From: a virus
Taxonomy: Duplodnaviria > Heunggongvirae > Uroviricota > Caudoviricetes
DNA length: 32,154 bases
Virus record (IMG/VR): IMGVR_UViG_2531839665_000013
Direction: 5' to 3' (one strand)
Part shown: in pieces, positions 1 through 597 of the stretch
How positions within the stretch are numbered: position 1 is the first letter of the stretch
Layout: every line of letters starts with the position of its first letter
Translations under genes and position numbers: made by a program
Notes under the pieces: model-generated
The model's input: only the letters and a program-made list of their open reading frames with translations
Told to the model about the DNA's origin: nothing
Databases searched by the model: none

Positions 1-597
1 ATAATAATTTTGATCAGCCCATTCAACTGCCGTCATTGGTACAACCCTGACCAGAGGCTGCAGCGCAACCGAAACGGCAGCCATCATATATTCAGTTGTT
101 GCTCTGATATGTTCATCGAGTAAATCCGGTAATTTATCCCCTGCCCGCGCACACTGATTTGCCCCCTTAGCAATAAGGGTTTTCAGATGGTCAAGATGGC
201 GCGGTGTTAAATCAGGAAACTGTCGCTGCATGGATAAAGGGATGGAATCAAGCGTACTGGATAACGCCATTGCCAGCTTACTGAGGGCAAAAATACAGAA
301 CCCGGTGTCAATAAGTTTTCCTTTTGACACCTCATTTTTTAACTGCTGTGTAACAGCCTGTTCTGCTGTCAGTTCCCATCTGGCAATAAGCAATTTCTCC
401 TCATAGTCGTCTTCGCTATCGCCATCAGGCACATCGTTTTTACTTCTCCTCAGATACGATATGTAAAAATCGCGCCAGGCATCCAGATCCAGTTGCCCTC
501 GCTTATTCGATATCGGGGCACCCGGCAATTTCTGCAATCTGCGAAGCTGGCGATCGGTCAGACTTAAATGCCTGGCAACTTCAGTCTGCGTAGCCAC
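1..597 (-). CDS. Terminase small subunit, lambda Nu1-like; 3' end runs off window
   Basis: GTG start at 597 with GAGG RBS. C-terminal region ...TGFCIFALSKLAMALSSTLDSIPLSMQRQFPDLTPRHLDHL... aligns by eye with lambda Nu1 (...TAFCTFVLSRIAGEIASILDGLPLSVQRRFPELENRHVDFL...). No stop before position 1. Confidence 0.8.
   Translation of the reverse strand, partial: MATQTEVARHLSLTDRQLRRLQKLPGAPISNKRGQLDLDAWRDFYISYLRRSKNDVPDGDSEDDYEEKLLIARWELTAEQAVTQQLKNEVSKGKLIDTGFCIFALSKLAMALSSTLDSIPLSMQRQFPDLTPRHLDHLKTLIAKGANQCARAGDKLPDLLDEHIRATTEYMMAAVSVALQPLVRVVPMTAVEWADQNYY

Follow-up and report, generated by a model that had tools for sequence, protein, structure and literature searches.

An apparent TerS-TerL fusion in a lambdoid prophage of Escherichia coli 4.0967 reflects one base missing at the terS stop codon near a contig end

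Results

The terminase junction and the cos region

The window analysed here is the whole 32,154-nt stretch of DNA in IMG/VR virus record IMGVR_UViG_2531839665_000013. Over 16,485 nt from its start it matches bases 1-16485 of AFAA02000007.1 (E. coli 4.0967, GCA_000194495.2; 329,609 nt) without a difference, and since base 1 of that contig is also the start of the window, window position 1 is the contig end. Leading up to this end, the minus strand carries, just as the initial annotation had claimed, a Nu1-like frame that runs without a stop from 597 to 1; translation gives 199 codons that start with GTG at 597, begin VATQTEVARHL and end with KLPDLLDEHIRATTEYMMAAVSVALQPLVRVVPMTAVEWADQNYY, and the remaining two minus-strand frames of the same interval contain many stops. 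The 199-aa product scores 67.8 bits against Pfam PF07471 Phage_Nu1 (cut-off 30) over residues 49-150, the gene callers recorded it as a Phage_Nu1 gene reaching the end of AFAA02000007.1, and the GTG corresponds to the start given by PGAP to the terminase small subunit (169 aa) of E. coli O157:H7 493/89. In the fused frame a TerS of Nu1 type continues into a TerL N-terminus of gpA type, which contains TAVEWADQNYY (TAVEWADANYY in lambda); the gpA N-terminus given when the frame was first described is accurate, lambda gpA starting (V)NISNSQVNRLRHFVRAGLRSLFRPEPQTAVEWADANYY. The parts of the junction are as follows.

1-597, minus strand: merged ORF by translation, comprising TerS, one Tyr codon and TerL codons 11-39, and running off the contig end.
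91-597, minus strand: terS proper, 169 codons with GAA at 93-91 as last sense codon, matching the annotated small subunit of relatives.
1-87, minus strand: terL codons 11-39 (MMAAVSVALQPLVRVVPMTAVEWADQNYY), read here in the frame of terS and truncated by the contig end.
84-116, minus strand: what is left of the native terL start; its ATG at 116-114 opens MNISEQQLNI, closed by TGA at 86-84, where relatives read MNISEQQLNNMMAAVS and continue.

Two further features lie on the other side of terS.

748-792, minus strand: lambda-type cosN, identical to lambda bases 1-45, with the 12-nt cohesive end GGGCGGCGACCT at 781-792.
645-653 (minus strand), 675-683 (minus strand) and 735-743 (plus strand): three exact copies of CCGGACATG, one of them inverted, between cosN and terS (3 found, 0.14 expected).

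As befits a Nu1-type gene, terS therefore lies directly downstream of cos with its repeated putative binding sites and directly upstream of terL. The gene order cos-terS-terL is that of lambda cos, nu1 and A, cosN is identical to that of lambda over 45 nt, and the module is of the known lambda type, with many near-identical copies in E. coli. Because the CCGGACATG repeats occupy a position analogous to that of cosB in the alignment with lambda, where it lies between cosN and nu1, they are probably cosB sites to which TerS would bind, with a packaging specificity different from that of lambda; the lambda sequence aligned at the repeat position bears no resemblance to them. The proteins of the intact relative in O157:H7 493/89 compare with those of lambda as follows: i) lambda Nu1 is 46% identical to TerS residues 73-164, the C-terminal two-thirds, but has no BLASTP similarity to the first 72 residues, the DNA-binding part; and ii) lambda gpA is 66% identical to the full-length TerL, in the same N-terminal register, with the same MNIS start and TAVEWAD.NYY motif.

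Intact relatives keep terS and terL as separate, overlapping genes

The best matches to window 1-900 are lambdoid prophages of many E. coli strains, and they align 901 record bases to the 900 of the query. In the O157:H7 493/89 prophage (99.8% identity with window 1-900), terS encodes 169 aa, and terL, which encodes 642 aa, opens in another frame 29 nt ahead of the terS stop; TerS ends LLDEYIRATTE followed by the stop, TerL begins with MNISEQQLNNMMAAVSVALQPLVRVVPMTAVEWADQNYYLPKE, and this TerL has both the PF05876 ATPase and the PF20454 nuclease domain. Phage PhiR12_1 has the same terS/terL layout, and the two genes are likewise separate and overlapping in the two closest sister prophages, those of E22 (99.7% identity with the window over 16.5 kb) and JB2 (covering 99% of window 1-25000, and located at yecE). 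Both sister prophages come from rabbit-associated strains. The normal two-gene layout holds in all 25 matches listed from 265 complete E. coli genomes that bear the junction. Lambda agrees: nu1 (191-736) and A (711-2636) overlap in different frames, as the initial annotation had stated, by 26 nt compared with 29 nt in the intact relatives.

Comparison with these relatives locates the cause of the merger in one base. A three-way alignment with O157:H7 493/89 and PhiR12_1 has a single gap, relatives reading CTGAATAATATGATG and the window CTGAAT-ATATGATG; the missing base is one A, so that AATAAT becomes AATAT, and the resulting sequence of the deleted form across the junction is CTGAATATATGATG. 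Because this A is missing, the terS stop TAA becomes TAT and is lost, and terL is shifted after codon 9 so that its body, from MMAAVS on, falls into the terS frame; the single loss thus removes the stop and shifts terL, and terS and terL are read as one ORF. The initial annotation had offered a genuine fusion, a 2-nt indel or sequencing error, or loss of the terS stop as separate possibilities, and had suggested looking for an indel between 40 and 110 and aligning the junction with those of related phages. The alignment finds the two frames to differ in the relatives and places an indel inside that interval, its size being one nucleotide rather than two; indel and stop loss are one and the same event.

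Window 1-900 differs from the O157 allele at exactly two places.

88-90, minus strand: site of the one-base deletion, located by alignment and pairwise differences; relatives read GAA TAA T ATG, the window GAA TAT ATG.
111, minus strand: private T-to-C change (gene strand), 21-22 nt away from the deletion; it replaces Tyr165 of TerS by His and is synonymous in terL codon 2.

The terminal 111 nt of the contig contain both private differences; over the next 789 nt the window does not depart from the O157 allele. In contrast to the window, the lambdoid prophages of O157:H7 493/89, O145:H28, E22 and JB2, as well as PhiR12_1, have the extra A, a TerS of 169 aa with a TAA stop, and a 642-aa TerL with its own start. 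Nor does lambda show any merger of frames; it is the window that is one base short at the terS stop.

The same junction also varies among the relatives. Codons 13-31 of terL (window 30-81) occur as two diverged alleles, one shared by the window and O157 and the other by E22 and PhiR12_1; they have 22 differences in 52 nt, beginning just after ATGATG, and the flanking terS is nearly the same in both. To judge by sequence, this switch of alleles at the terS/terL junction looks like a mosaic boundary.

The deleted form is absent from the other collections searched

We searched for the deleted junction at the DNA and protein levels. Exact queries with a 36-mer and a 21-mer of the deleted form returned no match in species-representative genomes, IMG/VR viral contigs or JGI metagenome contigs, and a control 22-mer of the normal form was present in at least 120 viral contigs. 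A 90-nt query spanning the site had matches at 442 places, distributed over the 265 complete E. coli genomes, and the best of them reached 97.8% identity; neither the deletion nor the substitution at 111 is carried at any of these 442 places. A protein search with the 199-aa ORF, which covered cluster representatives only, found no TerS representative running into TerL in this way; TerS homologues are about 167-172 aa long in Escherichia, Salmonella, Klebsiella, Citrobacter and Enterobacter. The few longer ORFs returned (P0005, P0076) come from error-prone public assemblies and, like the window, pass from a TerS start into TerL through indels, but they are visibly garbled by several frameshifts, with frame changes and nonsense stretches where the window has one clean deletion. 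Among the titles and abstracts found in the literature for Nu1-gpA or TerS-TerL fusion proteins, none was directly relevant.

These searches bear directly on the possibility of a genuine TerS-TerL fusion, which they do not support: the relatives keep separate overlapping genes, and the deleted form is in no collection searched. A fused frame conserved in independent genomes, as a natural fusion would have, was not found in the collections searched. Programmed frameshifts have a signal that is conserved across relatives, and both frames are kept in the DNA. In the lambda G/GT tail chaperone, an example of such frameshifting, two overlapping phage frames are likewise joined in one product, but in the window the DNA itself is altered, and in one sequence only; nor do the relatives point to recoding, since they end terS with TAA and initiate terL from an ATG of its own. 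The window terminase is thus not a member of the natural fusion or recoding class, conservation having been looked for and not found. By contrast, the deletion has the marks of an artefact in being private to one assembly, near a contig end and within repeated sequence.

A single-chain TerS-TerL terminase that functions and is under selection, or a recoding that gives separate products from the merged frame, is very improbable. All that speaks for such an enzyme is that the frame is open from 597 to 1 and that the join is clean, with full TerS, one residue and then TerL from residue 11; against it stand an arrangement conserved nowhere, TerS homologues of about normal length throughout, and near-identical sister prophages with the normal two-gene layout. 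Slighter still, to the point of being hardly credible, is the chance that the deletion is real and that the phage packages its DNA with a covalently linked TerS-TerL, possibly supplemented by TerL from the internal ATG-ATG; the prophage would then have a lambda-type terminase that is naturally single-chain.

The rest of the window

Beyond the terminase genes, the lambdoid prophage and a second element contain the following features.

4635-6485, minus strand: SASA/DUF1737 esterase, 616 aa.
6961-7037 and 7051-7127, minus strand: two tRNA-Arg genes.
8414-9229, minus strand: Q-type antiterminator.
18901-20187: tyrosine integrase at the end of the lambdoid prophage, adjoining a split DUF72 (yecE) gene.
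20698-22221: serine recombinase of a second element, which follows the lambdoid prophage within 18901-32154.

The late region at 4635-9229 resembles that of Shiga-toxin phages, but with an interval of only about 480 nt between the tRNAs and the esterase there is no room for stx genes. The exact sequence of the 616-aa esterase is on three public contigs only, namely AFAA02000007.1 and those of E22 and JB2. The second element also encodes baseplate and tape measure proteins, and its nearest relatives share only about 77-90% identity with it.

All other large ORFs of the window are intact and have the same lengths as in the relatives. There is a second private one-base deletion, at 6494, where CCC has become CC in a short homopolymer just upstream of the esterase Shine-Dalgarno sequence. 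It is absent from E22, from JB2 and from the 5 matches listed among 623 E. coli genomes (one unlisted record, at 99% or above, lies outside these). For comparison, over 17.5 kb E22 and JB2 are separated by 103 substitutions, with no one-base indel between them.

Discussion

Sequencing error or real mutation?

The window has lost one A at the terS stop; the loss opens the terS frame into terL and displaces terL from its own frame, it is absent from all the collections searched, and its distance from the end of the draft contig is 89 nt. E. coli 4.0967 is an O145:H2 Shiga-toxin-producing strain that was draft-sequenced by JCVI (PMC3359367), and the sequencing technology of the AFAA assembly is not stated in that paper. 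Such strains carry the cos-terS region in multiple copies (median 2, up to 8 places per genome), and for this reason a contig break and a poor consensus at terS/terL would be expected.

We think it probable, judging from sequence comparison, that the apparent fusion is a sequencing or assembly error at the contig end. The underlying locus would then be an ordinary lambda-type operon in which cos is followed by terS (169 aa) and by terL (642 aa) with a 29-nt overlap in the other frame; one A of AATAAT at the terS stop would have been dropped through faulty base calling or consensus building where the contig end is of low quality, in a prophage repeat of several copies; and the real phage would make separate TerS and TerL, as lambda does. 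Two broader versions of an artefact were considered and rejected. A chimeric contig end that joined two prophage copies, conceivable since the terL allele changes after ATGATG relative to E22, does not suffice by itself, for O157:H7 493/89 and many other genomes have this combination of alleles intact at 99.7-99.8% identity. Nor is the assembly generally indel-ridden: there are only two one-base indels over 20.6 kb of the prophage, and all large ORFs are intact.

Some observations point away from error, and leave it quite possible, if rather doubtful, that the deletion is a real and recent mutation, private to the lambdoid prophage that strain 4.0967 carries at yecE; this prophage would then likely be packaging-defective. 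Undercalls in pyrosequencing and nanopore sequencing are commonest in long homopolymers, and the base lost here belongs to a run of only two A's, outside any long homopolymer. Prophage genes do acquire real frameshifts; frameshifted or truncated genes are common in these prophages, and in JB2 several genes of the same prophage are annotated as partial. The deposited sequence has the deletion, the gene callers recorded the 199-aa gene, and the otherwise intact appearance of the prophage, with its other ORFs undamaged, is what would be expected of a very recent lesion. Against a real mutation, i) the deletion is private among the 442 homologous places and absent from the other collections searched; ii) it lies 89 nt from a contig end with a second private change adjoining it and none in the next 789 nt; and iii) the 6494 deletion in the same contig fits error better than it fits two independent real indels, the more so as E22 and JB2 show none between them. 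On balance we favor a contig-end error.

Consequences of the deletion, if real

If the prophage does carry the deletion, the merged frame would encode a polypeptide of about 802 aa, TerS(1-169)-Tyr-TerL(11-642). Neither free TerS nor TerL from its normal start would be made, and at most a TerL without its first 10 residues could arise, from the ATG-ATG at 87-82. Lambda terminase requires roughly two TerS per TerL, and the C-terminus of TerS docks on the N-terminus of TerL. A product that forces the two subunits into a covalent 1:1 ratio would most likely be defective, because the lambda holoenzyme has more TerS than TerL and joins them through this docking of the TerS C-terminus on the TerL N-terminus. 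Should the fused protein prove functional, it would bear on how the stoichiometry of terminase subunits is set. If instead the deletion is simply confirmed, the yecE prophage of this Shiga-toxin-producing O145:H2 strain is probably packaging-defective, a case of routine prophage decay. In either event, where terS and terL overlap in different frames, an apparent terminase gene fusion can stem from a single base missing at the terS stop.
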